The notes: a model not told the origin generated them from the letters alone. Positions 11,094 to 32,837 are shown, counted from the first letter of the stretch. The stretch: 32,866 bases of DNA from Candidatus Limnocylindrales bacterium (GCA_039917225.1 JBDSJV010000035.1:1-32866); one strand, 5' to 3'. Made by a program: numbers and translations.

Positions 11094-11312
11094 GGCCGGG
11101 AGTGTAGGCCTGGGCGATCAGTTCCCGGCGTGCTAACCGGCCTCCCGCCTTCTCCCACATGCCGTCGTACGCCGCACGTTGGTCCTCGAGGACCGCCGCG
11201 TCCCACGGATCCCAATGGTGGGCCTGTCTGTCGCTCATGAGTCCACCTCCGATCCGTGATCGACTAGGTGGGGGTTGACCCGCGCCAAGAGACTGGTAAG
11301 GACTGTGCCACC

Positions 11313-11681
11313 TCAGTGATGCACGTGGCGGGGCCAGCGCGCGAGCGCATCGGCCAGGACGTTGGCCTCGTTGTGGTCCTGATCGCGGGCGGCGAAGAGG
11401 AGAGTCACGAGCTCGTTGTGCTGCTCGATGTCACGAAGGAGGTCCAGGAGCTGGCCGCGTTCGAGTAGCTCCTGCTCGTAGCGCTGCTGAAACTCGGGCC
11501 ATCGGGCGAGCTCATGCCCGTACCACGTGCGCAGATCAGTCGAGGGAGCGATGTCCCGAAGCCAGAGATCGATGTTTGCCGCGTCCTTCGTCAGGCCGCG
11601 TGGCCACAACCGATCGACCAGGACACGATATCCGTCGCCGTCGGAGCGAGGTTCGTAGACGCGCTTGAGACGGATCGTCAT
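11313..11681 (-). CDS. DUF488 family protein (YeaO-like)
   Basis: 122 aa. 'IRLKRVYEPRSDGDGYRVLVDRLWPRGLTKDAANIDLWLRDIAPSTDLRTWYGH' matches the conserved DUF488 core as I recall it. Confidence 0.8.
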   Translation of the reverse strand: MTIRLKRVYEPRSDGDGYRVLVDRLWPRGLTKDAANIDLWLRDIAPSTDLRTWYGHELARWPEFQQRYEQELLERGQLLDLLRDIEQHNELVTLLFAARDQDHNEANVLADALARWPRHVHH

Positions 11682-11761
11682 GCCGTCACAACCGGCGTGA
11701 AAGTATCAGATCGGGACTCAGGCCCGGAACCCCGAGGAATAGCAGGATCGATCACGACGGC

Positions 11762-12898: not shown

Positions 12899-13230
12899 CC
12901 GAGCTCCACCTTGGCCTCGTCGCTCATCATCACCGGCGACCAGCGCGGCTCATAGATGAGATCGATGTCCACGTCGAGCACGCCATCGAGCTCGAACAGC
13001 GCGCGCCGGATCGAGTCGGCGAGATAGGACCCGATTGGGCAGGCCGGCGTCGTGGTCGTCATCCGGACGTGGACGACGCCCTCGCTCATCGTCGCACCGT
13101 AGACGAGACCGAGGTCGACGATGTCGATCCCAAGCTCCGGGTCGATTACCGACCGGAGCCGGTCGATGAGCGTGTCCGGATCGATCTGAGCCGGAAGCAG
13201 GCGGCCCAGGCCGATGGGCTCGTCAGCCAT
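12886..13230 (-). CDS. DUF59 / MIP18 (SufT-like) Fe-S cluster maturation family protein
   Basis: 'LIDRLRSVIDPELGIDIVDLGLVYG ... VHVRMTTTTPACPIGSYLADSI ... VDVDIDLIYEPRWSPVMMSDEAK' is the classic DUF59 pattern, including the conserved Cys in T-x-x-x-C-P. ATG 13230 overlaps the regulator stop by 8 nt (ATGGCTGA). GTG 13257 is the alternative start given in the ORF track. Confidence 0.85.
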   Translation of the reverse strand: MADEPIGLGRLLPAQIDPDTLIDRLRSVIDPELGIDIVDLGLVYGATMSEGVVHVRMTTTTPACPIGSYLADSIRRALFELDGVLDVDIDLIYEPRWSPVMMSDEAKVELGWLQ

Positions 13231-13888
13231 CGACCCGAACCCCGAGGTGAGCGACACACAGATCCGGCGCGACGAACGGCTCGAGAGTGATGGCGCTCAG
13301 GGGTGCTCCGAGCCGATGCAGCACACCACGCATCAGGCCGAGATGAACGCCGCAGACGACCTCGCTGCGCTCGCGGGCAAGGCTGCCGAACGGGCAGCGA
13401 TGAAGGCGGATCGGCTCACCGGGCTGCACGGACCGGTCGGGCTCGAAGCCGACATCACCAAGAAGACCGACCAGGCGCCCGATCGCCTCGGGCTCGTCGA
13501 TTGGGACCGTCGGATCCTCGACCATCGTCCGACCCCACCGCTCTCCGGCTTCGACTGCAGCGGCGCGGGCGTCCGGGACGCGTGCGAGTTGCTCGGCAAG
13601 GACCCCGGCCAGAGCCCGATAGGCCTCGGGATCGGGCTCGTCCGCATCCGCTCGGAGGACATAGGACAGGCGCGGTCGTCCGCGTCCGACCTGCCGTTCC
13701 GTCGTGCTCCCGACCAGGCCGGCGTCGATCAACTGGTCGAGATGCTCGCGAATCGTGTTGGGGTGGAGACCCAGTGCATGGGCCAGCTCACGGACCCCCA
13801 TCGGCCTCGCCGATCGGTGCAGGATCCGCAGCAGACGGGACCGCGTGATCCCACCGAGAATTCGGTGTCGGCGCACTGTAAATGGCAT
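13223..13888 (-). CDS. ArsR-type winged-helix transcriptional regulator with a C-terminal three-Cys domain (SufR-like guess)
   Basis: 'TRSRLLRILHRSARPMGVRELAHALGLHPNTIREHLDQLIDAGLV' is a wHTH. The C-terminal domain has 'LHRCPFGSLA', 'VVCGVHLGLMRG' and 'DLCVAHLG'. Start set at ATG 13888 (MPFTVRRH). The 16 upstream codons fall in the AT-rich intergenic region. Confidence 0.8.
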   Translation of the reverse strand: MPFTVRRHRILGGITRSRLLRILHRSARPMGVRELAHALGLHPNTIREHLDQLIDAGLVGSTTERQVGRGRPRLSYVLRADADEPDPEAYRALAGVLAEQLARVPDARAAAVEAGERWGRTMVEDPTVPIDEPEAIGRLVGLLGDVGFEPDRSVQPGEPIRLHRCPFGSLARERSEVVCGVHLGLMRGVLHRLGAPLSAITLEPFVAPDLCVAHLGVRVDG

Positions 13889-13934
13889 AGTTTGCATTTT
13901 GCACGGAAATAACCGTAAATAGCAAGTGCCAACC
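13876..13934. promoter_or_regulatory. AT-rich divergent promoter/operator region between the regulator and the hemerythrin operon
   Basis: This stretch is strikingly AT-rich for the window. A 12-mer is repeated directly with 2 mismatches: CTGTAAATGGCA (13876-13887) and CCGTAAATAGCA (13913-13924). Between the copies is a tandem TTTGCAT/TTTGCAC (13891-13904). TTGCAT (13892-13897), an 18-nt spacer and TAAATA (13916-13921) could form a weak sigma-70-type promoter giving a near-leaderless hemerythrin mRNA. Confidence 0.35.
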
Positions 13935-14420
13935 ATGAGCAGTCAGGAGTGTCACGACAACATGTCGAATCAATCCGATGCGGACGCCGCGACGGCCATC
14001 CGAGCACACCATCGGGAACTGCACGACGAGCTGCGGACCCGCGTGCTCGACGCGGTGGATACGGCGCGCGCCGGCGGGCCAGTCGGCGACGCTCGAGAGT
14101 CGGTCCTCGCCTTTCTTGATGGAGAACTGCTGCCGCACGCCGCGGCGGAGGAGGCCGCGCTCTATCCAGCCGGCGACACAGGGTCGAGTGAACTGCTCGT
14201 TCGAGCGATGCGCGACGAACACCGCAACCTGATCGCTCATGTCGACAGACTGCGGACGGCAAGTGACGGGATCGCCACGGCGACCATCGCCAGCGCGATC
14301 CTCGCCCTGTTCGAGTCGCACCTCTCGAAGGAGAATGACTTGCTCGTTCCCGCGCTCCTCGCCAGGCCCGACGTCTCGCTCGCGGCGTTGCTGGATGGGA
14401 TGCATGAGCTGGTCGGCTGA
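13935..14420 (+). CDS. Hemerythrin HHE cation-binding domain protein
   Basis: His/Glu ligand pattern spread over four helices: 'IRAHHRELHDEL', 'LLPHAAAEEAALYP', 'MRDEHRNLIAHVDRL', 'FESHLSKENDLL'. ATG 13935 was chosen. GTG 13926 and ATG 13962 are alternatives. Confidence 0.8.
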   Translation: MSSQECHDNMSNQSDADAATAIRAHHRELHDELRTRVLDAVDTARAGGPVGDARESVLAFLDGELLPHAAAEEAALYPAGDTGSSELLVRAMRDEHRNLIAHVDRLRTASDGIATATIASAILALFESHLSKENDLLVPALLARPDVSLAALLDGMHELVG

Positions 14421-14436
14421 GGTGGTCGAGGGCGCG

Positions 14437-14661
14437 ATGCGCGCGACGGATCCGGCCGTGACCCAGCTGACGACCTCACTGACGCGTGCGTTGCGTCGCC
14501 TTGGCGATGTCGGCGAACCGACGACAGCGGCCCAGATCGCAGCCCAGGCGTATGGAGCGCTCCGTCGTGAGCATGCACCGGCGGCTGAACGAATCAATCA
14601 GGTGATGCATTACCTGGCCCGCCTCGAAGAGGCTGGGAAGGAAGAGGGAGCGACACGATGA
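14437..14661 (+). CDS. Small hypothetical protein (74-85 aa), no family recognised
   Basis: The ORF is in frame with G/C-biased third codon positions. Its TGA stop overlaps the DUF2249 ATG (ATGA at 14658-14661). Possible starts are ATG 14404 (17-nt overlap with the hemerythrin gene), GTG 14422 and ATG 14437. Sequence: 'MRATDPAVTQLTTSLTRALRRLGDVGEPTTAAQIAAQAYGALRREHAPAAERINQVMHYLARLEEAGKEEG'. Confidence 0.5.
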   Translation: MRATDPAVTQLTTSLTRALRRLGDVGEPTTAAQIAAQAYGALRREHAPAAERINQVMHYLARLEEAGKEEGATR

Positions 14662-14915
14662 CAGACAACCAGATTCTCGACGTGAGGAGCGAGCCGCCGG
14701 TTCGGCGTCACGCCATCATCTTCGAAACGTTCGAGACCCTCGATGCGGGCACCGGCTTTGTGCTGGTCAACGACCATGACCCGAAGCCGCTCTACTACCA
14801 GCTTGCGGCCGAGCAGCCCGGGACGTTCACCTGGGACTACCTCGAGAGTGGGCCTGTCGTGTGGCGCGTGAGGATCGGCCGCGTCGGGACCCCTGCTGCG
14901 ACCGTCGAGGCCTGA
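14658..14915 (+). CDS. DUF2249 domain protein
   Basis: 85 aa. 'LDVRSEPPVRRHAIIFETFETLDAGTGFVLVNDHDPKPLYYQL ... FTWDYLESGPVVWRVRI' matches the DUF2249 consensus as I recall it (R-H-x-x-I-F, 'DHDP', 'GP..W'). Confidence 0.8.
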   Translation: MTDNQILDVRSEPPVRRHAIIFETFETLDAGTGFVLVNDHDPKPLYYQLAAEQPGTFTWDYLESGPVVWRVRIGRVGTPAATVEA

Positions 14916-14918
14916 CCC

Positions 14919-15695
14919 ATGAGCGACGTCGGACCCTCGAGCGGAGCCGAGACAGTGACCGTGGCGGCTACCTGGCCCATCTTCGAAGCGGCCTTGACAG
15001 GCCGCGAACCAGTGGCAGAACGGACGATGTCGTTCCGCTTCACCAAGCCGGACGACTGGACGTATCGGGCCGGCCAGTTCATCGACATCACGTTGCTCAA
15101 CCCGCCCGAGACTGACGCGGAAGGCAACACCCGGGGCTTCTCCATCTCGAGCGCCCCCAGTGAGGACGTAATCACGATCACGACCCGCCTGCGGGACACC
15201 GCGTTCAAGCGCGTCCTCCAGACCATGCCGCTCGGAACCCCGGTCAGGATCGAGGGACCGTTCGGCGACCTTCGGCTGCATCATGCGAACCGGCCGGCGG
15301 TGGTCCTCACGGGTGGGATCGGCGTCACGCCCTTCCGCAGCATCCTCGTGCAGGCGGTCAGGGACGGCGGTCTGCCGTATCGGGTCGTGGTCTTGTACGC
15401 CAACCGTCGACCCGAGGATGCGGCCTTCCTCGACGAGCTCGCCCACCTCGCGCAACAGGACTCGAATCTTACGTTCGTGCCCACGATGTCGGACATGTCA
15501 GAGTCGGGGCGCGCCTGGGATGGGGAGCGTGGCCGCATCGATGGGTCAATGCTCGGTCGCCACCTGGCTGGGGTTGCCAGCGCCATCTACTACCTCACTG
15601 GCCCGCCCGGCATGGTCAGCGGACTGCGTACGATGCTCGTCGACTCGGGCGTCGACGAGGACGACATCCGGACCGAAGAGTTCACTGGTTACTGA
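14919..15695 (+). CDS. Ferredoxin-NADP reductase-like FAD/NAD(P)H oxidoreductase
   Basis: 'YRAGQFIDI', 'RGFSISS' (R-x-[YF]-S FAD motif), 'PVRIEGPFG', 'VVLTGGIGVTPFRSIL' (NAD(P)H G-G-x-G-x-x-P), and an aromatic C-terminus '...EEFTGY'. Confidence 0.85.
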   Translation: MSDVGPSSGAETVTVAATWPIFEAALTGREPVAERTMSFRFTKPDDWTYRAGQFIDITLLNPPETDAEGNTRGFSISSAPSEDVITITTRLRDTAFKRVLQTMPLGTPVRIEGPFGDLRLHHANRPAVVLTGGIGVTPFRSILVQAVRDGGLPYRVVVLYANRRPEDAAFLDELAHLAQQDSNLTFVPTMSDMSESGRAWDGERGRIDGSMLGRHLAGVASAIYYLTGPPGMVSGLRTMLVDSGVDEDDIRTEEFTGY

Positions 15696-15711
15696 AAGAG
15701 CAGGCGAAAAC

Positions 15712-16185
15712 ATGAGACTCGACTACCAACACGAACTTCCCGAGGCATCACGAGCGATGAGCCAGCTGGAAGAAGTCATCGAATCGAGCACCCTCGAACC
15801 GCAGCTGTGTGAGCTGGTCAAGCTTCGTGCCTCGCAACTCAACGGTTGTGCCTACTGCGTAGACATGCACTCCAAGGATGCCGAGGCCATCGGCGAGGTG
15901 GCGCAGCGACTTCACCTCGTCGCCGTGTGGCGGGAGGCACCGGTGTTCAGCGCCAGGGAGCGGGCCGCCCTCGCCTGGACCGAGGCTCTGACGCTCCTGC
16001 CGCAGTCTGGGGCCCCCGACGAAGTCTACGAGGAGGTCGCTCGCCTGTTCGCTCCGGCTGAGCAGGTGGCATTGACACTGGCGATCGTCGCCATCAACGG
16101 CTGGAACCGCTTCGCGGTCGCTTTCCGCCAACCGGTCGGGAACTACGTCTCGCACCGTCATCCGGTGGATGCGTTGGGGGCCTGA
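15712..16185 (+). CDS. Carboxymuconolactone decarboxylase family / AhpD-like alkylhydroperoxidase
   Basis: 'LVKLRASQLNGCAYCVDMHSKDA' carries the AhpD-type C-x-x-C-x-x-x-H motif. 'ERAALAWTEALT' and 'AINGWNR' are typical of the family. ATG 15712 is in frame with the listed ORF 15283..16185, whose upstream part overlaps the FNR-like gene. Confidence 0.85.
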   Translation: MRLDYQHELPEASRAMSQLEEVIESSTLEPQLCELVKLRASQLNGCAYCVDMHSKDAEAIGEVAQRLHLVAVWREAPVFSARERAALAWTEALTLLPQSGAPDEVYEEVARLFAPAEQVALTLAIVAINGWNRFAVAFRQPVGNYVSHRHPVDALGA

Positions 16186-16514
16186 TGGCATCGGTCAGGC
16201 CGCCGGGATCCAGGGGCCGACTGGCGTCGAGTACATGCGGGTGCACTCGTGGAGCTAGTGCACCTGATCCTGCGCCGGGACTTTCTGGCCCTGCCGTCGA
16301 GCGAGGTCCGGGTCCTGCTCGATGGCGCGGACCACGGCCCCGGCAACCGGCGCAGGATCGTGGCGAGGTCGCGGGCGTGCCAGCTCTCGCGTGACCCCCC
16401 AGGATGCGCGGCCGTGGGTGCAGGCCGCAGCGTCCACTGCGCACGGCGACGAGCTGCGGAGCATCCGGTTCTGGGCGACCGGAACCGACCGGGACCGACC
16501 CGATGTCGGCACGG

Positions 16515-17213
16515 TCAGGCGGGATCGTCGCCCACGAAGCGGTAGCCCAACCCTCGCTCCGTCCGGATGTACCGGGGGTCCTCTGGGTTGTCACCGAGCT
16601 TCTCGCGAAGCCGGCGGATGTAGACCCTGATGTAGTCGACCTCGTCGACGTATTCACGGCCCCAGACCTTCGCCAGCAGGGTCCCGTGCTGGAGGATGTA
16701 GCCGGCGTTGCGGACCAGGTGGTAGAGCAGCTTGTACTCGGTTGGTGTCAGCTCAAGACGCTCGCCCCGTAGGCGGGCCTCCTGACGGGCGAAATCGACC
16801 TCGAGGTCGCCGGACCTGAAGGATGGGGCCCGGCTGGCTGGCGCCGGCATGTCGAGCCTGCGCAGAACGGCCTTGACTCGGGCCATGAGCTCAAGATGGT
16901 CGAACGGTTTGGTGACGTAGTCGTCTGCTCCGAGCTCCAGGCCTTTCACCTTGTCCATCGAATCGTCGTGGGCCGTAAGCATCACGACCGGCACGTCCGA
17001 GAATGCCCGGATCTGGCGGAGCACCTCGAAGCCGTCGATGTCGGGCAAGCCGATGTCGAGAAGGACGATGTCGGGACGCTTGTGTTCGATCGAGTCAAGT
17101 CCGGATTCGCCATTGACCGCGCCGATGACATCGATCTCACGCCATTGCAAAGTGAACCCGAGACGGACGGACTCGATGACATCCGGTTCGTCATCGACCA
17201 CCAGGACCCTCAT
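16515..17213 (-). CDS. OmpR/PhoB-family response regulator
   Basis: Receiver domain: 'MRVLVVDDEPD', 'PDIVLLDIGLPDIDGF', 'VVMLTAHD', 'GADDYVTKPF'. Winged-helix output: 'LTPTEYKLLYHLVRNAG', 'IRVYIRRLREKL', 'RGLGYRF'. Its start overlaps the kinase stop by 4 nt. Confidence 0.93.
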   Translation of the reverse strand: MRVLVVDDEPDVIESVRLGFTLQWREIDVIGAVNGESGLDSIEHKRPDIVLLDIGLPDIDGFEVLRQIRAFSDVPVVMLTAHDDSMDKVKGLELGADDYVTKPFDHLELMARVKAVLRRLDMPAPASRAPSFRSGDLEVDFARQEARLRGERLELTPTEYKLLYHLVRNAGYILQHGTLLAKVWGREYVDEVDYIRVYIRRLREKLGDNPEDPRYIRTERGLGYRFVGDDPA

Positions 17214-18241
17214 TCCTTAGGAGCCTCCTCGGGTCCGGCCGACGGAACGACGATGCTGAACGTACTGCCGCGACCGAGTCGGCTCCGTACGTCGATTCGG
17301 CCCTCATGCGCCTCAACGATCAGGAGGGAGATCGGAAGTCCCAAGCCGATCCCCGCGCTGGCCTCGGAATGGTCACGTTGCGCCACAAAGAAGCGTTCAA
17401 ACAGTCGGGCCTTGTCCGTCACCTTGATGCCGTGGCCCTTGTCACTGACGGTCCATGCGACGTCTGGCCCGACCCCTCGGACAGAGACCTTGATCGGAGC
17501 CCCTTGAGGTGAGTACTTCTCGGCATTGGAGAGGAGATTCACGAGAGCCTGTTCGAGCCGCCGATAGTCGCCGAAAACTGAGACCGGCCGGCTTGGTACC
17601 TCGAGCACGATGGTCTGTCCGCGTGATGCAGCGAGCAATGCAACGGATGAGATCGCCGACTCGGCGAGCTCAGTTGCATCGAACCTACGGAGCTGGAGTT
17701 GGACGCGACCGGCACGAAAGCGAGCAAGATCAAGAATGTCGCCAACCAGGCGCTGCATCCTGGTCGTATTGCGGTCGATTGTCTCCAGGAGTGTCTGGTG
17801 TTGGTCGGCGCTCGGCTCGATCGAGGGGTCGAGCAACAGGCCGATGCTCGTCCGCACCGCGGTCAGCGGTGTCCTCAGTTCGTGGGCGATCGTGGACAGG
17901 ATGTCGGTCCGCATGTGCTCGATCTCAGCGAGCATCTCGACATGCTTCGGCCGGCCGGCAATGGAGACCCCGAGTAGCCGCTCACCGAGCGGAGTCGGGA
18001 AGTAGTCACCGGAACGTTTCGCTCCTCGTACTACCCGCGCCAGACCGAGCCCGGAAAGCTCATCGAGCAGAGCCTCTGCGGCCCGTTCGTCGATTGCCGC
18101 ATCGGCCGCCGCGAATCGAATCGTCAGGTTCGAGGGTGTCACGTGGTCGTGAATGAGCGCCAGCGCAGCAACGGCGAGCGGTGAGGGTTGCGGGTTGGTG
18201 GCCATCGAGGAAACGAGCATACGCTCGCCCACGGCACCCAC
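17210..18241 (-). CDS. Sensor histidine kinase (HisKA + HATPase_c) with no predicted TM segment
   Basis: H-box 'LSTIAHELRTPLTAV', N-box 'LVNLLSNAEKYSP', G1 'VSDKGHGI', G2 'GIGLGLPIS'. The N-terminal ~110 aa are soluble with no hydrophobic helix. Possible starts: GTG 18241, ATG 18220 or ATG 18205. Confidence 0.9.
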   Translation of the reverse strand: MGAVGERMLVSSMATNPQPSPLAVAALALIHDHVTPSNLTIRFAAADAAIDERAAEALLDELSGLGLARVVRGAKRSGDYFPTPLGERLLGVSIAGRPKHVEMLAEIEHMRTDILSTIAHELRTPLTAVRTSIGLLLDPSIEPSADQHQTLLETIDRNTTRMQRLVGDILDLARFRAGRVQLQLRRFDATELAESAISSVALLAASRGQTIVLEVPSRPVSVFGDYRRLEQALVNLLSNAEKYSPQGAPIKVSVRGVGPDVAWTVSDKGHGIKVTDKARLFERFFVAQRDHSEASAGIGLGLPISLLIVEAHEGRIDVRSRLGRGSTFSIVVPSAGPEEAPKE

Positions 18242-18256
18242 TTCAGCCGGACCGGC

Positions 18257-18508
18257 TCAGCGTCTGCCAGCTCGCACGAGGTGGTGGCCAGTGACTACGA
18301 TCGGGATGGCGATGGGATCGGCGACATCGAGGCAGTGGTGCACGCGCGACTCATCGATGGGCGCCTGGTCGTACGAGCAGATACACGGACCGTTGGCGGC
18401 ACAGCCGGCGCAGCAGAACGGCAGCCCGACGTGGAACGTAGCTGAGCCGACGATCTCGAGCTCGCACGTGACGCAACTGAATGGTTTGATGGTGCTCAAG
18501 CGCCGCAT
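18257..18508 (-). CDS. Small Cys/His-rich putative metal-binding protein (TRASH/YHS-like or SmtA-type metallothionein-like zinc-ribbon)
   Basis: 83 aa with G/C-biased third codon positions. 'FSCVTCELEIVGSATFHVGLPFCCAGCAANGPCICS' gives C-x2-C-x16-C-C-x2-C-x5-C-x-C. This is close to the TRASH C-x2-C-x19-22-C-x3-C pattern and to the SmtA 'yyCSeaCAdGH' segment. It also has 'HHC' and 'GHH'. The gene ends 15 nt upstream of the kinase GTG. Confidence 0.5.
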   Translation of the reverse strand: MRRLSTIKPFSCVTCELEIVGSATFHVGLPFCCAGCAANGPCICSYDQAPIDESRVHHCLDVADPIAIPIVVTGHHLVRAGRR

Positions 18509-18785
18509 GTCATCCTCGCTGAATGGGGCGCGCTTCGGCTGTACGCCGTGAAGGGTGCGCCCCGGTGATGGCGGTAAGCCACCGCGCCTGAAGCTAGGGT
18601 CGCGGGTTGAAGACCCGTGGAAACCCGGGTGAATATGGCGTGAATGAGGTGGCCGGTCACGTTTTCATATGGCGTTCACGCTCATCCATTCGCTTGTTCG
18701 CTGAGAGCCTTCAATCTCCCGATGACGTGCCCGCTCGCCTTCGCACACCGTGTCGGTGCGCCTCGTCATAGACCGGAGACCACCG

Positions 18786-20063
18786 ATGCTGCAGACCCTT
18801 GAGATGCCCGCCCAGACGCGAGGCGCCAACCCGCTGGCGGCGGCTCTGGCCCAGTTTGATCAGACCGCCGACCACCTTCAGCTCGAACCCGGGATCCGCG
18901 CGATCCTCCGGGCGCCGAAGCGGGAGTGGACGGTCAATTTCCCGGTCATGCTCGACGACGGCACGGTGAAGGTCTTCACCGGGTATCGCGTGCAGCACAA
19001 CGTATCTCGCGGGCCGGCGAAGGGCGGCTTGCGCTATCACGAGACGGCGGACCTTGATGACGTCCGCGCCCTGGCGATGTGGATGACCTGGAAGTGCGCC
19101 CTCGTTGACGTTCCGTTCGGAGGCGCCAAGGGCGGAGTGACGCTGGATCCACGAATGTTCAGTACCAGGGAGCTCGAGGCCGTGACGCGGCGGTTCGCAA
19201 CAGAGCTTGAAGGGATCATTGGACCGGACTCGGACATCCCCGCGCCCGACGTCGGGACGAACGCACAGACGATGGCCTGGATCATGGATACGGTGTCGAT
19301 GCACCGAGGCTACTCGGTCCAGGGCGTCGTGACGGGCAAGCCTATCTCGATCGGCGGTTCGCACGGCAGGGCAGATGCGACGGGCCAGGGCGTCGTCTAC
19401 ACCATCGCCGATGCAGCGCGCCGGGGCGGCTTCACGATTGAAGGAGCACAGGTCGCCGTCCAGGGATTCGGCAACGTAGGTGAAGCGACGGCCCGGTTGA
19501 TGCACAAGGTGGGAGCACGCGTAGTTGCGATCACTGATGTCGGTGGCGGCGTGACGAACCCGGATGGCCTCGACGTGCCGCTGTTGACGCGGTACCTGCA
19601 GGAGCACGGCACGATTGCCGGCGCACCCGGCACAACGCCGATCTCGAACGACGAGCTCTTTGCGTTGGACGTTGACATCCTCGTCCTGGCTGCATTGGAA
19701 GGCCAGATCACGAAGGCGAATGCCAGCACGGTCCGTGCTCGGATCCTGGCCGAAGCGGCGAATGGCCCGACCACGCCTGATGCCGATCCGATCCTCCGCC
19801 AAAACGGAGTCGTCGTGATCCCCGACATCCTGTGCAACGCCGGAGGAGTGATCGTCAGCTACTTCGAGTGGGCCCAGAACCGGGCCGCGCTGGCATGGAC
19901 CCTTGACGAAGTCAACGAGCGTCTCCGACGCCAGATCCTCGTCGCTGCGGAGGCCGTCTGGCAACGAGCGGCGGCCGATAACGTCAGCCCACGGCTCGCG
20001 GCCAACGCGATTGCGGTCGAGCGGGTGGCCTTGGCGACCCAGCTGCGAGGCCTTTATCCCTGA
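18786..20063 (+). CDS. gdhA: Glutamate dehydrogenase (Glu/Leu/Phe/Val dehydrogenase family)
   Basis: 'KGGLRYHETADLDDVRALAMWMTWKCALVDVPFGGAKGGV' is the catalytic Lys region. 'DIPAPDVGT' is present. 'VAVQGFGNVGEATA' is the Rossmann GxGxxG. ATG 18786 is residue 13 of the listed ORF. Confidence 0.93.
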   Translation: MLQTLEMPAQTRGANPLAAALAQFDQTADHLQLEPGIRAILRAPKREWTVNFPVMLDDGTVKVFTGYRVQHNVSRGPAKGGLRYHETADLDDVRALAMWMTWKCALVDVPFGGAKGGVTLDPRMFSTRELEAVTRRFATELEGIIGPDSDIPAPDVGTNAQTMAWIMDTVSMHRGYSVQGVVTGKPISIGGSHGRADATGQGVVYTIADAARRGGFTIEGAQVAVQGFGNVGEATARLMHKVGARVVAITDVGGGVTNPDGLDVPLLTRYLQEHGTIAGAPGTTPISNDELFALDVDILVLAALEGQITKANASTVRARILAEAANGPTTPDADPILRQNGVVVIPDILCNAGGVIVSYFEWAQNRAALAWTLDEVNERLRRQILVAAEAVWQRAAADNVSPRLAANAIAVERVALATQLRGLYP

Positions 20064-20143
20064 TCGAACGGAGAGTGGTCTCTCGACTGGATCGGGCTCT
20101 GGTCGAGCAGGCCATCGGGTCGACTGAGTCGTCGATCCGCCGC

Positions 20144-21121
20144 TCACCCGAGAATCGAAGCAAATCCCAGCCCACCGCCAGCCTCAAGCCGTGCGAGCAG
20201 CAGATGGTAGTAAAGCATTCCCTGCTGGGGTCGCAGCGCGTCGATGACCTGGTCGACCTCCAGTCCGATCGGGCCGGCCACCAACGCGAGGTTCCGGGCG
20301 ACGCCCGTGTCGTTCATCGGAAAGACATCGAGCCGGCCGAGGCCGCGGAGCAGGATGACGGCCGCTGTCCACGGCCCGATGCCCTTGATGTCCTGGAGCA
20401 GGCCTGCGGCAGCCGGACTCGGGAGTGCCTCGAGCGTCGCCCGGTCGAGCCGGCCGGTCACGTGAGCCTCACCCGCACGCCGCAGCGTCGCGATCTTGCG
20501 ACCGCTGAGGCCGATCGCACGGAGGTCGTGATCCGCAGACGCCAGGAAGTGTTCGGGACCTGGGAACGGGTACAGCGAGACCCCATCGACGTCGACCGCT
20601 GGCTCAGCAGCCACGATCAGGCGCCGGACGATGGTGCTTGCTGCATGGAGACTCAGCTGCTGGAAGGTCACCACGTTCACAAATGCCTCCCAGAGCGATG
20701 CGTAACGAGGCGGTTTCACACCGCGCATGCGCAGCGCCAGTGGGCTTAACCAGGGGATGGTTGTGGCGGCCCGGCCGAATGAGCTGACGTCCCGATCCGT
20801 CCCAAGCATCGCCCGCACCAGGGCGAGGGCCGGTTCGTGGTCGTCCGGGTTGCCCTCGATCGTGGCGGCCAGGACCTCATCGCTGGCCTGAGCCACGCGG
20901 ACAATCACGGGTCCGTGCGCACCAATCAGCGCACGAACGTAGCGCCCGTCGGCCGTCAGCACGTCGACGATGTTGGTCGCCAGACGACGCAGGACGCTCA
21001 CGGTGAGATCGAGCCGATATGGAGCGATGACCGGAATTTCGTACTCTGATCGGATCGAGAGTGCTCGATCCCCGTGTACCAGGCGGCTGGCGGTCATCTG
21101 GTTGGTCAGTCGGTCTCTCAT
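20144..21121 (-). CDS. alkA: DNA-3-methyladenine glycosylase II-like HhH-GPD base-excision enzyme
   Basis: HhH 'LQDIKGIGPWTAAVILLRGLGRLDVFPMNDTGVARNL' with the catalytic Asp in 'MNDTG'. An AlkA-like N-terminal domain is present. An alternative start lies at the second Met (21097). Confidence 0.8.
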   Translation of the reverse strand: MRDRLTNQMTASRLVHGDRALSIRSEYEIPVIAPYRLDLTVSVLRRLATNIVDVLTADGRYVRALIGAHGPVIVRVAQASDEVLAATIEGNPDDHEPALALVRAMLGTDRDVSSFGRAATTIPWLSPLALRMRGVKPPRYASLWEAFVNVVTFQQLSLHAASTIVRRLIVAAEPAVDVDGVSLYPFPGPEHFLASADHDLRAIGLSGRKIATLRRAGEAHVTGRLDRATLEALPSPAAAGLLQDIKGIGPWTAAVILLRGLGRLDVFPMNDTGVARNLALVAGPIGLEVDQVIDALRPQQGMLYYHLLLARLEAGGGLGFASILG

Positions 21122-21279
21122 TCGACCTCGCCGTCTTCCCCTGGTTTGGCCGGCGGCCGACCGCGACCGCCTCCATGCGGTCCAAGGCGTCCGTCATGCT
21201 TCGCCCCGGCAGCGTACGCCCATCCGCCTCGCCGCACGCCGCCGTCGGTGGGTCGGTCCCGTACTGCCCGATCGGGGGC

Positions 21280-21308
21280 TTGACACATCTGAGGGATCAA
21301 CGCATATT
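21280..21308 (+). promoter_or_regulatory. Candidate sigma-70-type promoter of the ArsR/PI operon
   Basis: Consensus -35 TTGACA at 21280-21285, a 17-nt spacer, then CATATT at 21303-21308 (4/6 match to TATAAT). It sits about 25 nt upstream of the GTG at 21334, in the only AT-rich patch of the 212-nt intergenic region. Confidence 0.45.
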
Positions 21309-21329
21309 GATATAAACCGTCATTGATCC
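21294..21329. promoter_or_regulatory. Inverted repeat overlapping the -10 region; candidate ArsR-family operator
   Basis: GGATCAA (21294-21300) and TTGATCC (21323-21329) are perfect reverse complements. A nested ATCAA-N6-TTGAT lies at 21296-21311. The repeat overlaps the putative -10 and transcription start, directly upstream of the ArsR-family gene. Confidence 0.35.
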
Positions 21330-21333
21330 GACG

Positions 21334-21744
21334 GTGCCCAATCTCCCTTCAACGCCAGTTCCTCCATCTCCGGAGACTGCTCTGAGCCCCTCCCCAGCCC
21401 GGATCCGCTCCACGATTGCCGCGGTCGTCGACCAGCCCGATGACCTCCGCGCGGTTCGTCTGATTCACAAGACGCTCGCTGACGTGAACCGCCTGCGGAT
21501 CGTGCGGCGACTCGCCCAGGGCGAGGCCTCCGTGACGGACCTCATCGATCACGTCGGGCTGAGCCAGCCCCTGGTGTCTTGGCACCTCGGCAAGCTCCGG
21601 CTCGCAGGGCTGGTGGAGACACGCCGCGCCGGCCGCGAGACCGTGACGCGGCTCATTCCGGAAGCCTGGGATCGCTTTGCCATCTACGAGCGGCGGGTGC
21701 TGGGCCTGGCGCCCGCCGAGCGGCCACGGAGCGCGGTTTCGTGA
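21334..21744 (+). CDS. ArsR/SmtB-family transcriptional regulator
   Basis: '[57 protein letters not shown]' is a canonical ArsR wHTH. The start is GTG at 21334. Its stop overlaps the next gene's GTG (GTGA at 21741-21744). Confidence 0.85.
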
Positions 21745-22418
21745 GCGGCTCATTGGTCTCCGCCGGTATGCGAAGCCGGTTCCGGGCCATGGCCGGGCCG
21801 ATTGCCCGGGCCCTCGGACGACTGGGCCTGACGCCGAATCACCTCACCTTCATCGGCTTCGGTATCGCCGTGATCGCGGCAGTCGCGGCCGCACAGCAGG
21901 CCTGGCTCGCGGCTGGACTCCTCGTGATCTTCGGCGCGGTCTTCGACCTGTTCGACGGCGCACTTGCGCGGGCCACGAACCGGGTCAGCAGGCTCGGAGC
22001 GTTCTACGACTCCGTCTTCGACCGCTGGGGCGAGGGCGTGATCTACGTCGGCCTCGTCTGGGGGACGCTGGACTTCGGGCTCTGGCTGCCGGTCATGCTA
22101 TCGGCCACCGCCCTTGCCGCTGCCGTCATGGTCAGCTACACGCGGGCCAAGTCAGAGAGCCTCGGTTTCACGACCGGGGCCGGCATGGCTGCCGTGGGTC
22201 TCGCCCCGCGCGAGGTCCGGATCGCGATCCTCTCGATCGGCCTCATCGTGGCCGGTCTTCTTCCTGGCTTCCCGGAGGACATGGACCTCCCGGGCGCGAT
22301 GGGCTATCCGTTGTCCGGACTTGCGCTGAACGCGGCCCTCGGACTCATCACGATCCTCGCCACGATCACGACGATCCAGCGCATTCTTCACGTTCGCGCC
22401 CAGGCTCGGGAGGGCTGA
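21741..22418 (+). CDS. CDP-alcohol phosphatidyltransferase; by context a phosphatidylinositol-phosphate synthase (PgsA1-like)
   Basis: The exact signature D-x2-D-G-x2-A-R-x8-G-x3-D-x3-D is present in '[30 protein letters not shown]'. The protein is multi-TM and lies immediately upstream of ino1. Start is GTG 21741 or ATG 21768. Confidence 0.85.
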
Positions 22419-22483
22419 CGCGCGGCGCGATCACTCGAATCATCCCACCAACCATCCAGCCCATCAGGAGTCAGGAGCAAGCA

Positions 22484-23710
22484 GTGAGCAGCAAGAACGG
22501 CAAGAACGGCACGACCGCCGGAACCTGGGCCGGTTCCGGGCGCAAGGACGGCAAGATCCGGGTCGCCATCGTCGGCGTCGGGAACTGCGCCAGCAGCCTC
22601 GTCCAGGGCCGCTACTACTACGAGAACGCCAAGGTCGGTGATTTCGTCCCGGGCCTGATGCATGTCGAGCTCGGCGGCTACCACGTCCGGGACATCGAGT
22701 TCGTGGCCGCCTTCGACATCGACAAGAACAAGGTCGGCAAGGACATCTCCGAGGCCATCTACCAGAAGCCGAACAACACCATCGTCTTCCAGCAGGTCGC
22801 GAACATGGGCGTCAAGGTCGAGCGGGGGATGACCCACGACGGCCTCGGGAAGTACCTCAGCCAGATCATCGAGAAGGCCCCGGGCCCGACCGCCGACATC
22901 GTCGGGATCCTCAAGGAGCGCGAGGTCGATGTCATGGTCTCGTACCTCCCCGTCGGGAGCGAGGAGGCGACCAAGTGGTACGTCGAGCAGGCGCTCCGTG
23001 CCGGCGTCGCGTTCGTCAACGCCATCCCGGTCTTCATTGGCCGCGAGCCCTACTGGCAGCGCCGCTTCGCCGAGGCCGGGCTTCCCGTCATCGGTGACGA
23101 CATCAAGAGCCAGGTCGGCGCGACGATCAGTCACCGCGTCATGACCCGCCTATTCATGGATCGTGGCGTTCGCCTCGATCGAACCTACCAGCTGAACTTC
23201 GGCGGCAACACCGACTTCCTGAACATGCTCGAGCGGGAGCGCCTCGAGTCCAAGAAGATCAGCAAGACGAATGCCGTCACCTCCATGCTCGACTACGAGA
23301 TGGATCCCGATGACGTCCACGTCGGGCCGAGCGACCACGTGCCGTGGCTGCTCGATCGCAAGTGGTGCTACATCCGGATGGAGGGCACGACCTTCGGTGA
23401 TGTGCCGCTCAACGCCGAGCTCAAGCTCGAGGTCTGGGACAGCCCGAACAGCGCCGGTGTCATCACCGACGCCATCCGCTGCCTCAAGCTCGGCCTTGAC
23501 CGTGGCCTGAGTGGGACGCTGGTCGCCCCGTCGAGCTACTTCATGAAGAGCCCGCCGCATCAGATCCATGACGACATCGCCTTCAACCGGGTCGAGGCCT
23601 TCATCCTGGGTGAGGACAACGAGACGCTCGTCGGCACCGAGGTCCCGACGGTCCGCAAGCTGCGGAAGATGGCCGGGTCGAAGGCGAAGGTCGCCGCCGC
23701 CGCGAAGTGA
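22484..23710 (+). CDS. ino1: myo-inositol-1-phosphate synthase
   Basis: '[22 protein letters not shown]', '[13 protein letters not shown]', '[17 protein letters not shown]' and '[16 protein letters not shown]' resemble the actinobacterial/archaeal-type MIPS. GTG 22484 is preceded by tandem AGGAG motifs (22466-22470 and 22473-22477). The listed 269-codon upstream extension is out-of-frame overlap with the previous gene. Confidence 0.92.
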
Positions 23711-24717
23711 CGGATCGAGAGCGCCGACTGGAGGCACCGCATCGACGCCTCCGGTCGGGTTCGCCCTTCTTTGAACGAGCGGTGGTCGCGGGATACAAGG
23801 CGTTTGCCTGGCTGATCTCGCACATCCCGCCGGCGATTCCACGCGCCGTTCTCGGCCGCGGCGCCCAGCTGTCGTATCTCCTCTGGCCCGGCAAGCGCCG
23901 CTGGTCCAACCTGAATTTCGGGCATGTCCTGGGACTGCCGCCGAGCCATCTCCGGGTTCGCCGGACGGCACTTGCAGCGTACCGACGGTACGGCCAGTAC
24001 GTCGTGGAGCTGGCCCGGCTGCCGATGCTCGCGCGTGACCACGCCGACGAGCTGGTCAGCGGTGCGGATCTGGATGGCATCCACGAGATCTGGGCGAATT
24101 CGAAGGGTGGTCTGATCTTCACGCTCGGACACCTCGGCAACAACGAGGCCGTGGCTGCCGGCGTCGCGTCACGCGGCTGGCCGATCAACGTCGTCGCCGA
24201 CGACTCGTCGTTCCCGGGCCTGTTCGAGGAGTTCCGGCGGACGCGTGAGCAATGGGGTGTCCATGTCATCCCGTGGCGCAACCTGCGCGAGATCTACGCG
24301 GTCCTCCGGCGTCGCGAGATGCTGGCGCTGCTGATCGACTGGGGATATCGGCGCGACGGTATTCCGGTCAGGCTGTTCGATGCGTGGACCACCCTGCCCG
24401 CCGGACCCGCCTCGCTCGCCGCGAAGACCGGCTCCCGAATCCTGCCGGTGACGCTCCATCGCAGACCAGATGGCCGGACCTTCTCGATCTCGTGGGCCGA
24501 ACCGATCGAGGTGATGGGCTCTGACCCCGCCTCGCTGCAGCGGGCGACCCAGGCGATGGCCGATGCCTTCGAGGCAGCGGTGCGGGCGGCGCCGGACCAG
24601 TGGTACTCGTTCAAGCCGATCTGGCCGGCCGATCCGGCAGAGTCAGCGGTGCTCGAGGCCCGCGCCAGGGCGATGCTCAGCGGTGACCCGTCCTCCACGG
24701 CGCAGGAGTCCGCGTGA
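23707..24717 (+). CDS. LpxL/HtrB-family (PatA-like) lysophospholipid/PIM acyltransferase, copy 1
   Basis: The H-x4-[DE] acyltransferase motif appears in '[15 protein letters not shown]'. '[37 protein letters not shown]' is typical of the family. The start GTG overlaps the ino1 stop (GTGA). Confidence 0.82.
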
Positions 24718-25739
24718 ACCCTGAGACCGAACCCGTGCCCGGCGCTGCACCTCCTCCGGCGGACCGGGGGACGCCGTTCCAGCGACTTCGGGCGGGTCTC
24801 CTGGCTCTGATCGCGCGGGCCCTGATCGCGATTCCGGAGGGGCCGGTAAACGCCATCGGCGAGGCGGCCGGCGAACTCTGGTATCGAATGGCGCCAGGTC
24901 GTGCCGCGCGGGCACGGCGGAACCTCCAGCGCGTGGCGAGCCACCTGGTGGCGCGTGGGCTGGCGAACGACGCGACTCGCGCCGCCGCCGAGGACCCGGC
25001 CGCGCTCGAACGCCTGGTCCGTCGTGCCTTCCGGCAGGCGGCCCGCTACTACCTCGACATGGTCCGCCTGCCCGGGCACAGCGCCGCGGAGCTGGAGTCG
25101 CGGCTGATCGTGGAGACACCGGACACCGTGGCCGACGCCTTCGGCGAACCGGGGCCCATGGTCTTCGTCTCGATGCATTTCGGAGCGGTCGAGTATCCGG
25201 CGCTCTTCGCCGTCGCCCGAACCGGGCGCCACGTCGTCGCTCCGATGGAGACGCTCGCAGATCCCGCGCTCCAGTCATGGATCGAGCGGACTCGAGGTTC
25301 GGTCGGGGTCGACATCGTGTCGTTGCGCGATGCACGCCGGGCGCTGACCCAGGCCCTGACCGAAGGTCGGGTCGTGGGCATGGTGGCGGATCGCAACGTC
25401 GCTGGCGGCGCCATCGAAGTGCCGTTCTTCGGCGCCCCGGCCCCCCTGCCGATGGGACCGGGCCTGTTCGCGATGGAGGCCGGTCTCCCGATCTGGGTGG
25501 CCGCGGTGCGACGGGCCGGTGGCGGCCGCTACCGGGGCCAGCTCAGGCGGGTCGACATCCCGACCGAGGGCCTGCGCCGGGCCCGACTGGCCGCGGCGAT
25601 GGCTGGCGTCGCGCGGGCGATGGAGGAATCGATTGCCGCGGCGCCGGAACAGTGGTGGTCGGCGCTCGCGCCGGTCTGGCCGGATCTCGATCCCGAGGCA
25701 GCGACCGGGACCGGGCGCCTCGAGGAGGCCGGCCGATGA
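24714..25739 (+). CDS. LpxL/HtrB-family (PatA-like) acyltransferase, copy 2
   Basis: 'MVFVSMHFGAVEYPAL' carries H-x4-E. 'VVGMVADRNVAGGAIEVPFFGAPAPLPMGPGLFAMEAG' parallels copy 1. The start GTG overlaps the copy-1 stop (GTGA). Confidence 0.8.
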   Translation: MNPETEPVPGAAPPPADRGTPFQRLRAGLLALIARALIAIPEGPVNAIGEAAGELWYRMAPGRAARARRNLQRVASHLVARGLANDATRAAAEDPAALERLVRRAFRQAARYYLDMVRLPGHSAAELESRLIVETPDTVADAFGEPGPMVFVSMHFGAVEYPALFAVARTGRHVVAPMETLADPALQSWIERTRGSVGVDIVSLRDARRALTQALTEGRVVGMVADRNVAGGAIEVPFFGAPAPLPMGPGLFAMEAGLPIWVAAVRRAGGGRYRGQLRRVDIPTEGLRRARLAAAMAGVARAMEESIAAAPEQWWSALAPVWPDLDPEAATGTGRLEEAGR

Positions 25740-26545
25740 CCGAGCGCCTCGGTCGTGCCGATCTCCATATCCATACGCTCGCCTCGGATGGCACGGCCGG
25801 TGCCCTCGAGATCCTCGAGTTCGTCGAACAGACCACCGACCTCGACGTCATCGCGATCACGGATCACGAGCGGATCGATGCGGCGCGCGCCGCACAGGTC
25901 GTCGCCCGCGACGGGGGCTTCAGGGTCGAGGTGATCGTCGGGGAGGAGATCACGACACTCGGCGGTCACCTCCTGGCGCTCTGGATCGACCAGCCGATCC
26001 GCCCGTTCCGCTCGCTCCGGACCACGATCGCGGCGGTTCACGACCAGGGTGGCATCGCCATTCCCGCCCATCCGCTGGTTCCCTACCCGCTGTGCGCCCA
26101 GGGGTTCGTCCTGCGCCGCCTGCTCGAGGACGACCCGCGCTACTGGCCCGACGGGATCGAGGCCTTCAATCCGACCGCACTGGGGCGCCCCGGCCACGAG
26201 CGAGCCGTCCGCTTCGCCGAGGAGTTCGGGCTGGCTCGCATCGGCAACTCGGATGCCCACGCGCTCGAGGCGATCGGCGCCGGCCACACGACCTTCCCGG
26301 GTCGGAGTGCGGCGGATCTCAGGGCGGCCGTCGAGGCTCGCACGACGCACGAGCACGGCGCCTTCCACCGGACGACGGACCAGCTGGCGATCTTCCAGGC
26401 CCAGCTCCGCAAGTACGGCCGGGACGCACGGGCCAACCTCGGCGGCCGGATCCGGCGCGATGGCTCGGGCCGCGACCTCGGCTACCCGAGGGACCCTGGC
26501 GGGGCCGGCTCGCCGAACATCCGGGCAAGCGAGGGGGAACGATGA
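25736..26545 (+). CDS. PHP-domain metal-dependent phosphoesterase
   Basis: PHP motifs in order: 'ADLHIHTLASDG', 'VIAITDHE', 'VIVGEE', 'GIAIPAHP', 'IEAFN', 'GNSDAH'. ATG 25736 overlaps the upstream stop (ATGA). Its own stop overlaps the next ATG (ATGA at 26542). Confidence 0.85.
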   Translation: MTERLGRADLHIHTLASDGTAGALEILEFVEQTTDLDVIAITDHERIDAARAAQVVARDGGFRVEVIVGEEITTLGGHLLALWIDQPIRPFRSLRTTIAAVHDQGGIAIPAHPLVPYPLCAQGFVLRRLLEDDPRYWPDGIEAFNPTALGRPGHERAVRFAEEFGLARIGNSDAHALEAIGAGHTTFPGRSAADLRAAVEARTTHEHGAFHRTTDQLAIFQAQLRKYGRDARANLGGRIRRDGSGRDLGYPRDPGGAGSPNIRASEGER

Positions 26546-27716
26546 AGATCGGGCTTGTCACGCCGTACGTCTATCCACTCCCCGGCGGCGTGAATCAGCA
26601 CGTCCGCTACCTCTACGAGAACCTGCGGCAGCGCGGCCACGACGTCCGGATCATCACCAGCTCCCACGGTCTCCAGCGCGCGTCCCAGGGCGATGTGATC
26701 CGGATCGGGAAGGGCTTCTCGATGCCCGCCAACGGCTCGATGGGCACGATCACCCTGTCGCCGCGCTACCTCTCCCAGGTCCGGGCGGTGCTCGAGCGGG
26801 AAGACTTCGACCTGCTCCATTTCCACGAACCCTTCGTCCCCTTCCTGTCGCTCATCGTCCTCGGGTTGTCGAAGAGCGTGAACGTGGCGACCTTCCACGC
26901 CTACGGTGGCTTCTCCCCGGCCTACGAGTTCGGCTCGAAGGTGATGGGCTCGTATGCGAACCGCCTCCACGGCCGGATCGCCGTATCGGCGGCGGCGCGC
27001 CACTTCATCGACCGGTTCTTTCCGGGTGACTACAAGGTCATCCCCAATGGCGTCGACATCGCCCGATTCCGGCGCGCGGTGCCAATCGCGCGATGGCAGG
27101 ACGGGACTCGCAACATCCTCTTCGTCGGCCGCTTCGAGTCCCGAAAGGGCCTCCTGGATCTCCTCCGCGCCTACCGGATCCTCCGCAAGACCGGGTGTCC
27201 ATGTCGCCTCCTCATCGTCGGCGGTGGGCCACAGGAGCGCGAGGCGCGACGCTATGTCATGACCCGCCGGATGGGCGGAGTCGAGTTCCTTGGAAAGGTC
27301 TCCGATGAAGAGCGGGACGCCCTCTTCAAGACGGCCGATGTGTACGTCTCGCCGGCGACCGGGCGCGAATCGTTCGGGATCGTCCTGCTCGAGGCGATGG
27401 CCGCGGGTACCTCCATCGTCTGCAGCGACATCCACGGCTACAAGGGCGTCGTTCGCCGGGACCGCGACGCGCTGCTGGTGCCACCGAAGGACGCCAAGGC
27501 GCTGGCGCTCGCCATCGGGCGCCTCGTCAATGACGACGAGCTCCGGGCACGGATGGCCGCCTCGGGCCTCGAGCGTGCGAATGAGTTCTCGTGGGAGCGG
27601 GTCACCGGCAAGGTCGAGGACTACTACGGGTTCGTGATCCGTCGTCTCGCGGCGCAGGGTGCGCTGCCTCCCGGCTTCACGGCGGAAGTTCCGCCCCCCA
27701 TCCGTCCCGCTTCCGC

Positions 27717-27720
<4 letters not shown>
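26542..27720 (+). CDS. pimA: GT4 glycosyltransferase, PimA-like phosphatidylinositol mannosyltransferase
   Basis: 'MKIGLVTPYVYPLPGGVNQHVRYLYENLRQRGHDVRIIT' parallels the PimA N-terminus. The GT4 E-x7-E region is 'RESFGIVLLEAMAAGTSIVCSD'. Synteny with the PI synthase and acyltransferases supports the call. The symbol rests on context, not on a search. Confidence 0.8.

Positions 27721-32837
<5,117 letters not shown>

Follow-up and report, generated by a model that had tools for sequence, protein, structure and literature searches.

A conserved Limnocylindria operon predicted to make acylated phosphatidylinositol mannosides, with a PHP-family phosphoesterase as candidate phosphatase

Can one bacterial operon outside the Actinomycetota encode the route from glucose-6-phosphate to an acylated phosphatidylinositol mannoside (PIM), and which of its genes would supply the phosphatase step? 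The question is raised by seven genes at positions 21334-27720 of a 32,866-nt stretch of DNA from a Candidatus Limnocylindrales bacterium (GCA_039917225.1 JBDSJV010000035.1:1-32866), which is called the window below. PIM-type glycolipids are usually treated as an actinobacterial hallmark. The contig belongs to the Chloroflexota, class Limnocylindria, and close homologues of its PHP-family phosphoesterase are named Chloroflexota or Candidatus Limnocylindrales. The genes probably form an autoregulated Limnocylindria operon for the cytoplasmic-face route from glucose-6-phosphate to acylated PIM. The chemistry of this pathway is itself known. What is new is the phylum-level setting, the conserved regulator with its operator, and one candidate non-orthologous enzyme.

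A lineage-wide operon and its predicted pathway

The original prediction, made from the sequence, described seven genes on one strand: an ArsR regulator, a phosphatidylinositol phosphate (PIP) synthase (PIPS), ino1, two acyltransferases (AT1 and AT2), a PHP phosphoesterase and a PimA-like GT4 glycosyltransferase. It placed 4-nt overlaps at five of the six junctions and a single gap of 65 nt before ino1. Open reading frames (ORFs) and a direct reading of each junction bear this out. The overlaps read GTGA at 21741-21744, 23707-23710 and 24714-24717, and ATGA at 25736-25739 and 26542-26545; they would couple the translation of the enzymes. The proposed family labels also agree with Pfam and NCBIfam, which give HTH_5/ArsR, CDP-OH_P_transf, Inos-1-P_synth, Lip_A_acyltrans (twice), PHP_C/PHP and GT4. 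Identical overlaps occur in an independent gene call of a related public contig (L001), so the choice of starts is not an artefact of a longest-ORF rule. An Rfam scan of the 65-nt gap gave no match, and Rfam and tRNA scans of the whole window found nothing, including any riboswitch or other RNA element that would account for the gap. The operon contains no more terminator-like sites than chance would give, with 2 found and 2.2 expected.

The seven-gene operon is real and lineage-wide, and no peculiarity of one contig. A scan of one genome per species yielded 80 loci, mostly titled as Chloroflexota, Chloroflexia or Limnocylindria metagenome-assembled genomes, in which gene order was judged by tblastn of the window proteins. 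Every locus that is long enough has the order ArsR-PIPS-Ino1-AT1-AT2-PHP-PimA. This order is kept even where identity has dropped to about 35% for PIPS and the acyltransferases, 46% for PHP, 57% for PimA and about 77-80% for Ino1, which is 77-97% identical across the Limnocylindria loci. One cluster, L062, has no ino1 between PIPS and AT1.

A wider search used a profile of distant PHP representatives, with the contexts checked by tblastn. Among the matches listed, the homologues belong to other Chloroflexota where they are named (Dehalococcoidia, Roseiflexaceae and unclassified members). Gene orders found there are ino1-AT-PHP-PimA-PIPS (L084), ArsR-ino1-AT-PHP-PimA-PIPS (L085), ino1-AT-AT-PHP-PimA-PIPS (L086 and L089), ino1-PHP-PimA-PIPS with no acyltransferase (L088, 5974-9643) and AT-AT-PHP-PimA-PIPS (one JGI contig), AT standing for an acyltransferase. 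The number of acyltransferases thus varies from two in L086 and L089 to none in L088. Clustering of the PHP sequences gives four subgroups, that of the window included, which are embedded in phosphatidylinositol (PI) clusters. In every PI cluster examined, the PHP gene of these subgroups lies directly upstream of the PimA gene and usually overlaps it.

PIM-type glycolipid genes are therefore a core trait of the sampled Limnocylindria genomes and are present in several other Chloroflexota lineages. They bear on how these uncultured soil and freshwater bacteria construct their envelope. The clusters L062, without ino1, and L088, without an acyltransferase, could act as natural knock-outs in the assignment of steps.

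In the proposed pathway, Ino1 would make inositol-3-phosphate, and PIPS would join inositol phosphate to CDP-diacylglycerol to give PIP. The PHP protein may then remove the inositol phosphate group from PIP, leaving PI. PimA would add mannose from GDP-mannose to PI, the PatA-like AT1 would acylate the mannoside, and AT2 may add or transfer a further acyl chain. The lipid product, the PHP substrate and the role of AT2 are here predicted from sequence. Since PimB' is not present in the operon, the expected product is an acylated monomannoside, and not necessarily the mycobacterial Ac1/Ac2PIM2 series.

The family assignments of the enzymes draw on motifs and on the separation of best matches. The CDP-alcohol signature is defined as D1xxD2G1xxAR...G2xxxD3xxxD4 (Clarke et al. 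2015, PMC4634129). In PIPS it takes the form D69xxDGxxAR...GxxxDxxxD94, with DLFDGALAR...GAFYDSVFD at residues 69-94. The phosphate of inositol phosphate is bound by two arginines that are specific to PIP synthases, R155 and R195 in MtPIPS and R153 and R191 in RsPIPS (PMC4634129). Both have counterparts here, R160 (in PREVR) aligning with Mt R155 and Rs R153, and R214 (in IQRIL) with Mt R195 and Rs R191; S132 is kept and K135 is changed to R. The best NCBIfam match is archaetidylinositol-phosphate synthase (NF040950, 132.8 bits), with 114.9 bits for PIPSynth (NF045883), 35 for PgsA and 27 for PssA. The best matches in the PDB are mycobacterial and Renibacterium PIP synthases, with 6wm5/6h53 at E ~1e-17. 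The transferase thus groups with enzymes that use inositol phosphate, in line with the PIP synthase that had been proposed, and not with the PgsA/PssA-type enzymes.

The GT4 is closest to PimA, again as proposed. Its match to PimA reaches 216 bits, compared with 75 bits for the next best structure and 50 for PimB', and it is 37% identical to M. smegmatis PimA over 360 aligned residues. In a HMMER alignment it keeps Y9, G15-G16, H118, R196, R201, K202 and E274-X7-E282 (M. smegmatis numbering). Of these, G16, R196, K202 and E274 are the PimA residues that bind the nucleotide sugar, GDP-mannose, and E274 and E282 make up the EX7E motif. The gene is clustered with those of PIPS and a PatA-type acyltransferase.

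Among solved structures, AT1 and AT2 match PatA only, and the PIM acyltransferase model NF005919 is the best NCBIfam match for both (135.2 and 105.2 bits). The second acyltransferase of the original prediction is accordingly a member of the Lip_A_acyltrans family with PatA as its best match. The two proteins are 25% identical. Each keeps the catalytic histidine (AT1 H142xxxxE, AT2 H155xxxxE), the HxxxxD motif reading HxxxxE, and each has Asp at the position of PatA E200. His126 and Glu200 are presumably the catalytic residues of PatA. AT1 is nearer to PatA than AT2 is, and nearer too to the one acyltransferase that L084 and L085 each carry. In mycobacteria, the inositol of AcPIM is acylated by an enzyme that has yet to be assigned; it has been predicted to be periplasmic, with no relation to PatA (PMC9490103). 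Given that prediction, AT2 would be a candidate second acylation enzyme for the Limnocylindria lineage only, and no obvious answer for mycobacteria.

The PHP phosphoesterase and its place in the pathway

The PIPS route yields PIP and then needs a PIP phosphatase, which in 2015 was "as-yet-unidentified" (PMC4634129). Such an enzyme has been identified in Bacteroides only, where it is BT_1525, of the PgpA family (Heaver et al. 2022, PMC9246714). In the literature searched, no PIP phosphatase assignment for mycobacteria or archaea was found. Searches for a PHP-type PIP phosphatase, Chloroflexota PIM genes and Limnocylindria inositol lipids gave nothing relevant beyond Heaver 2022 and Clarke 2015.

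The PHP protein is the sole phosphoesterase in the operon, sited between the acyltransferases and PimA with overlapping junctions. Its His/Asp/Glu metal ligands in the four PHP motifs are intact: H11, H13, D18, H44, E71, H112, D173 and H175 do not vary among 48 sequences, and the ligand columns are invariant also in 20 distant representatives. The protein has no characterised close relative. Its AlphaFold model is confident (pLDDT 89.5) and shows the PHP barrel fold: the top Foldseek matches were all PHP-family structures (E 3e-12 at best), comprising phosphoesterases without a characterised function, RNase AM, PsfC, pAp phosphatase Cv1693 and histidinol-phosphate phosphatase. Because they are only 16-23% identical, the function of the PHP protein is not transferable by homology.

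A phosphatase candidate had already been suggested at this locus, and the idea is strengthened by the presence of the PHP gene inside PI clusters of several Chloroflexota lineages. The protein is assigned as PIP phosphatase because it is the only phosphoesterase in the operon, is translationally coupled and co-varies with the pathway across four subgroups. It is the best candidate for the step from PIP to PI, with roughly even odds of being that phosphatase. If it is, the absence of PgpA from the operon would make it a non-orthologous replacement of the PgpA type.

A broader proposal can be made tentatively, with chances that fall a little short of even. The PHP protein would be a new lipid head-group phosphatase, namely a PI-3-phosphate phosphatase of Chloroflexota that is non-orthologous to the PgpA type, and it would be co-regulated with the rest of the pathway by an ArsR-family repressor that works without metal and senses one of the intermediates. 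We know of no member of the PHP superfamily that acts on a phospholipid head group. If the proposal is true, then to our knowledge no PHP-superfamily enzyme before this one would have been shown to use a phospholipid as substrate. In this protein the operon presents a clean phosphatase candidate from an unrelated superfamily, one that is strongly conserved and translationally coupled.

Several points weigh against the proposed pathway. Its steps are predicted from sequence and, for the PHP protein, from a modelled structure as well. Equivalog scores lie below the NCBIfam cut-offs for PIPS (170 bits for NF045883 and 180 for NF040950), for AT1 and AT2 (209 bits for NF005919) and for Ino1. Such scores would be expected for a distant phylum, where membership rests on motifs and best-hit separation. 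Positions R77, K78, K80 and K81, which belong to the basic amphipathic membrane-binding helix of PimA, align here to S, Q, R and A. Of these four basic residues the GT4 thus has a single one, plus an additional R that lies three residues further upstream, and the helix is only weakly basic. The PHP protein lacks transmembrane segments and has a C-terminal helix that is only modestly amphipathic and basic (hydrophobic moment about 0.4), and the substrates of its closest structural relatives are nucleotides, RNA or small phosphate esters. No PgpA domain was found with Pfam and NCBIfam in a search that covered the operon proteins, and a PgpA-type phosphatase may be encoded elsewhere in these genomes. 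Finally, a fifth PHP subgroup (P0368, P0377, P0378, P0387 and P0388) lies outside PI clusters, beside a non-PimA GT4 or in unrelated contexts, so that the association of PHP with PI is specific to the subfamily. The earlier reading of the locus as one unit leading from glucose-6-phosphate to acylated PIM is supported, with the sub-cut-off scores and the missing PimB' as its caveats.

The main alternative to a PIP phosphatase is an enzyme that acts on the mannosylated product. PimA would then mannosylate PIP and the PHP protein would dephosphorylate mannosyl-PIP. Such synthase/phosphatase pairs are formed by the sucrose-phosphate, trehalose-phosphate and glucosyl-phosphoglycerate synthases with their phosphatases, and by MshA with MshA2. 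The analogy gains from the adjacency of PHP and PimA, which is the most invariant feature of the clusters and persists when PIPS, ino1 or the acyltransferases are relocated or missing, and from L083 and L087, where a PHP protein of another subgroup also adjoins a non-PimA GT4. However, the adjacency of genes cannot order two reactions, the conserved residues of the GT4 suggest no different acceptor, and the characterised PimA uses PI as its substrate (PMC9490103). This order of reactions is therefore considered unlikely. A lower probability still is given to a non-lipid phosphoesterase for nucleotides or small molecules, resembling pAp phosphatase, RNase AM, histidinol phosphatase or inositol monophosphatase, with a side function such as the removal of an inhibitory by-product or the balancing of the inositol-phosphate pool. 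The nearest characterised structures are indeed RNase AM (7ug9, 9etk), pAp phosphatase Cv1693 (2yb1) and histidinol-phosphate phosphatase (2yxo), NCBIfam matches RNase RNM and nucleoside bisphosphate phosphatase weakly, and the protein lacks a membrane anchor. Yet its 16-23% identity to such enzymes comes with scores far below their cut-offs, and none of the reactions of the operon produces pAp. The PIPS route takes inositol phosphate directly, so an inositol monophosphatase is not needed. Retention in PI clusters over four PHP subgroups with differing gene orders is also hard to explain for a bystander.

It is very improbable that the cluster makes another product, whether a di-myo-inositol-phosphate-type solute or a mycothiol-like glycosyl-inositol. 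PIPS does match the DIPP synthase family weakly (57 bits; PDB 4mnd at E 1e-8), as the GT4 does MshA (83 bits in NCBIfam). Against this, no cytidylyltransferase domain is present, the scores of PIPS to PIP and archaetidylinositol-phosphate synthases are twice its DIPP synthase score, and the GT4 has 69 bits to 3c4q, presumably MshA, compared with 216 to PimA. Two lipid-A-type acyltransferases point to a lipid. Both products were rejected on the family scores and these acyltransferases, and an operon for acylated PIM, with dephosphorylation of PIP before mannosylation, is preferred.

Other PHP genes were seen in the comparison. In L083 (745-2882) and L087 (5739-7798), the proteins P0368 and P0387 are paired with a GT4 that is 26-31% identical to the PimA of the window, and no PIPS or ino1 is visible nearby. 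These may be a different glycosyltransferase-phosphatase pair. A second, different PHP-domain gene lies divergently upstream of ino1 on the minus strand of L086 (3591-4268), L088 (5268-5933) and L089 (3033-3797). These Dehalococcoidia-type clusters thus carry two PHP proteins, and the window has no such second gene.

Regulation and neighbouring genes

Transcription would start from one promoter covered by two operators, which are presumably bound by the cysteine-free ArsR-family protein. The operators are two abutting 16-bp palindromes of the ATCAAC-N4-RTTGAT type that cover the -10 hexamer and the likely start site (Table 1). No other site in the window matches ATMAACN4RTTGAT, a pattern for which 0.11 matches are expected by chance. 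The arrangement is conserved: paired abutting sites lie upstream of ArsR in 36 of the 51 loci with enough upstream sequence, and at least one site in 39. Where two sites occur, they are the only pattern matches across the entire locus. The TTGACA upstream of the ArsR gene is kept in most related loci, and in the rearranged cluster L085 a related site, TTCAACGATAATTGAT, precedes the ArsR gene.

The ArsR gene heads the cluster in L085 and in every Limnocylindria locus that reaches that far. Its start (GTG 21334) is uncertain, with no obvious Shine-Dalgarno sequence and about 35 initial residues that are poorly conserved in distant relatives. ArsR/SmtB proteins sense metals through an alpha-3 Cys pair or an alpha-5 His/Asp/Glu site. 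Neither kind of metal site is recognisable in the regulator: its 136 aa include no cysteine, and its C-terminal helix region has no His. The protein is likely an autorepressor, with a predicted response to a non-metal ligand. Together with the conserved operator, it provides a small defined system for studying the regulation of bacterial inositol lipids.

Table 1. Features of the operon and the convergent gene, in window coordinates
Feature	Position	Strand	Details
Sigma-70-like promoter	21280..21308	+	TTGACA-17 nt-CATATT; sole promoter-like site in 20900-28200 (7.3 kb)
Operator site 1	21296..21311	.	Palindrome ATCAAC-GCAT-ATTGAT; overlaps -10 hexamer
Operator site 2	21312..21327	.	ATAAAC-CGTC-ATTGAT; abuts site 1 directly
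ArsR/SmtB-family winged-helix regulator, 136 aa	21334..21744	+	HTH_5 PF01022 50.6 bits (cut-off 22); NF033788 76.2 bits (cut-off 55)
PIP synthase-type CDP-alcohol phosphatidyltransferase (PIPS), 225 aa	21741..22418	+	Signature, arginines, NCBIfam and PDB matches
Intergenic gap, sole one	22419..22483	+	65 nt; ribosome-binding site AGGAGTCAGGAG before GTG at 22484
Ino1, myo-inositol-3-phosphate synthase, 408 aa	22484..23710	+	Inos-1-P_synth 122 bits; TIGR03450 535.9 bits, full model length
AT1, PatA-like, LpxL/HtrB family, 336 aa	23707..24717	+	Lip_A_acyltrans 103.8 bits; PDB PatA 5f2t E 1e-22
AT2, divergent paralogue, 341 aa	24714..25739	+	Lip_A_acyltrans 97.1 bits; PatA 5f2t E 4e-10
PHP-family metal-dependent phosphoesterase, candidate PIP 3-phosphatase, 269 aa	25736..26545	+	PHP_C 47.9 bits; weak PHP match
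PimA-type GT4 mannosyltransferase, 392 aa	26542..27720	+	Glycos_transf_1 + Glyco_transf_4; PDB PimA 4n9w/2gej 216 bits
Convergent double GT-C protein, 1706 aa	27717..32837	-	Weakly GT87-like module, (PE)11 linker, PMT (GT39)-like module

The operon was also said to be abutted by a giant GT-C mannosyltransferase-like gene. This is a minus-strand ORF with PMT domains, whose stop overlaps the stop of the GT4 gene (TAG, 27718-27720) in the sequence CTAG. Two GT-C glycosyltransferase modules seem to be fused in this protein. Its N-terminal module (aa ~40-470) is of the GT-C type with about ten hydrophobic segments, and scores 23.1-23.3 bits for GT87, for which the Pfam cut-off is 25. GT87 is matched at E<=0.001 by 11 of 24 homologues, and homologues are publicly named GT87, DUF2029 or Gpi18-like. 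A PimE-type structure was sought for this module, and no PDB match was found by sequence or profile. The PMT-like module (aa ~585-1700) scores 55.3 bits for PMT and 40.8 bits for PMT_4TMC over residues 995-1482. After an FDEVYH motif it holds an insert of ~350 aa without a match in Pfam. A linker of eleven Pro-Glu dipeptides (aa 487-508; 31314-31379, minus strand) connects the two membrane modules. Among the Limnocylindria loci that reach far enough, most have a convergent PMT homologue after the PimA gene. The giant protein could act on proteins as a glycosyltransferase, or it could lengthen the mannolipid on the outer face.

Directly upstream of the operon promoter, a 10.2-kb block (11107-21356) is absent from the closest genome, L003. 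The block contains genes for DUF488, an unknown 378-aa ORF, Fe-S assembly, hemerythrin, an oxidoreductase, CMD, a two-component system, glutamate dehydrogenase and an HhH-GPD glycosylase. Elsewhere L003 is collinear with the window at 86-89% nucleotide identity, and it has about 60 nt from an MFS gene to the ArsR promoter. At the other end of the window, the ORF before nuoJ (1-2004, plus strand) joins a pyridine-nucleotide-disulphide oxidoreductase domain to a C-terminal 2x[4Fe-4S] ferredoxin domain. It sits where NuoI would be expected in a nuo operon.

Comparison with known systems

In M. tuberculosis, pgsA1, patA and pimA are clustered (Rv2612c-Rv2610c) and ino1 (Rv0046c) lies elsewhere. 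The mycobacterial PIM operon and the one described here share homologous PIPS, PatA and PimA genes on one strand, and have in common the PIPS signature and arginines, the PatA histidine and the PimA residues. The Limnocylindria operon adds ino1, an ArsR-family regulator, a second acyltransferase and a PHP phosphoesterase, whereas it has no Rv2609c-type Nudix gene and no PimB'. The hosts belong to different phyla, Chloroflexota and Actinomycetota.

Another cluster that is predicted to share its route is BT_1522-BT_1526 of B. thetaiotaomicron (PMC9246714). There, as here, genes for MIPS, PIPS and a PIP phosphatase, in this operon a candidate, are found together, and PI is made, or would be made, via PIP. 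BT_1525, the phosphatase in Bacteroides, is a PgpA-family protein, while the only phosphoesterase of the Limnocylindria operon has the PHP fold. In Bacteroides the cluster feeds into inositol sphingolipids, and it contains neither PimA nor PatA.

The known PHP phosphoesterases (RNase AM/TrpH, Cv1693, HisK, TM0559 and BVU_3505) share both their fold and their set of His/Asp/Glu metal ligands with the PHP protein of the operon. They differ from it in sequence, with the low identity given above, and in genomic context.

Like the ArsR/SmtB repressors, the regulator is a winged-helix HTH_5 protein, its gene heads its own operon, and palindromic operators lie over the promoter. It differs from them in lacking cysteine and any recognisable metal site at alpha-3 or alpha-5, and in its predicted control of a lipid pathway rather than metal resistance.

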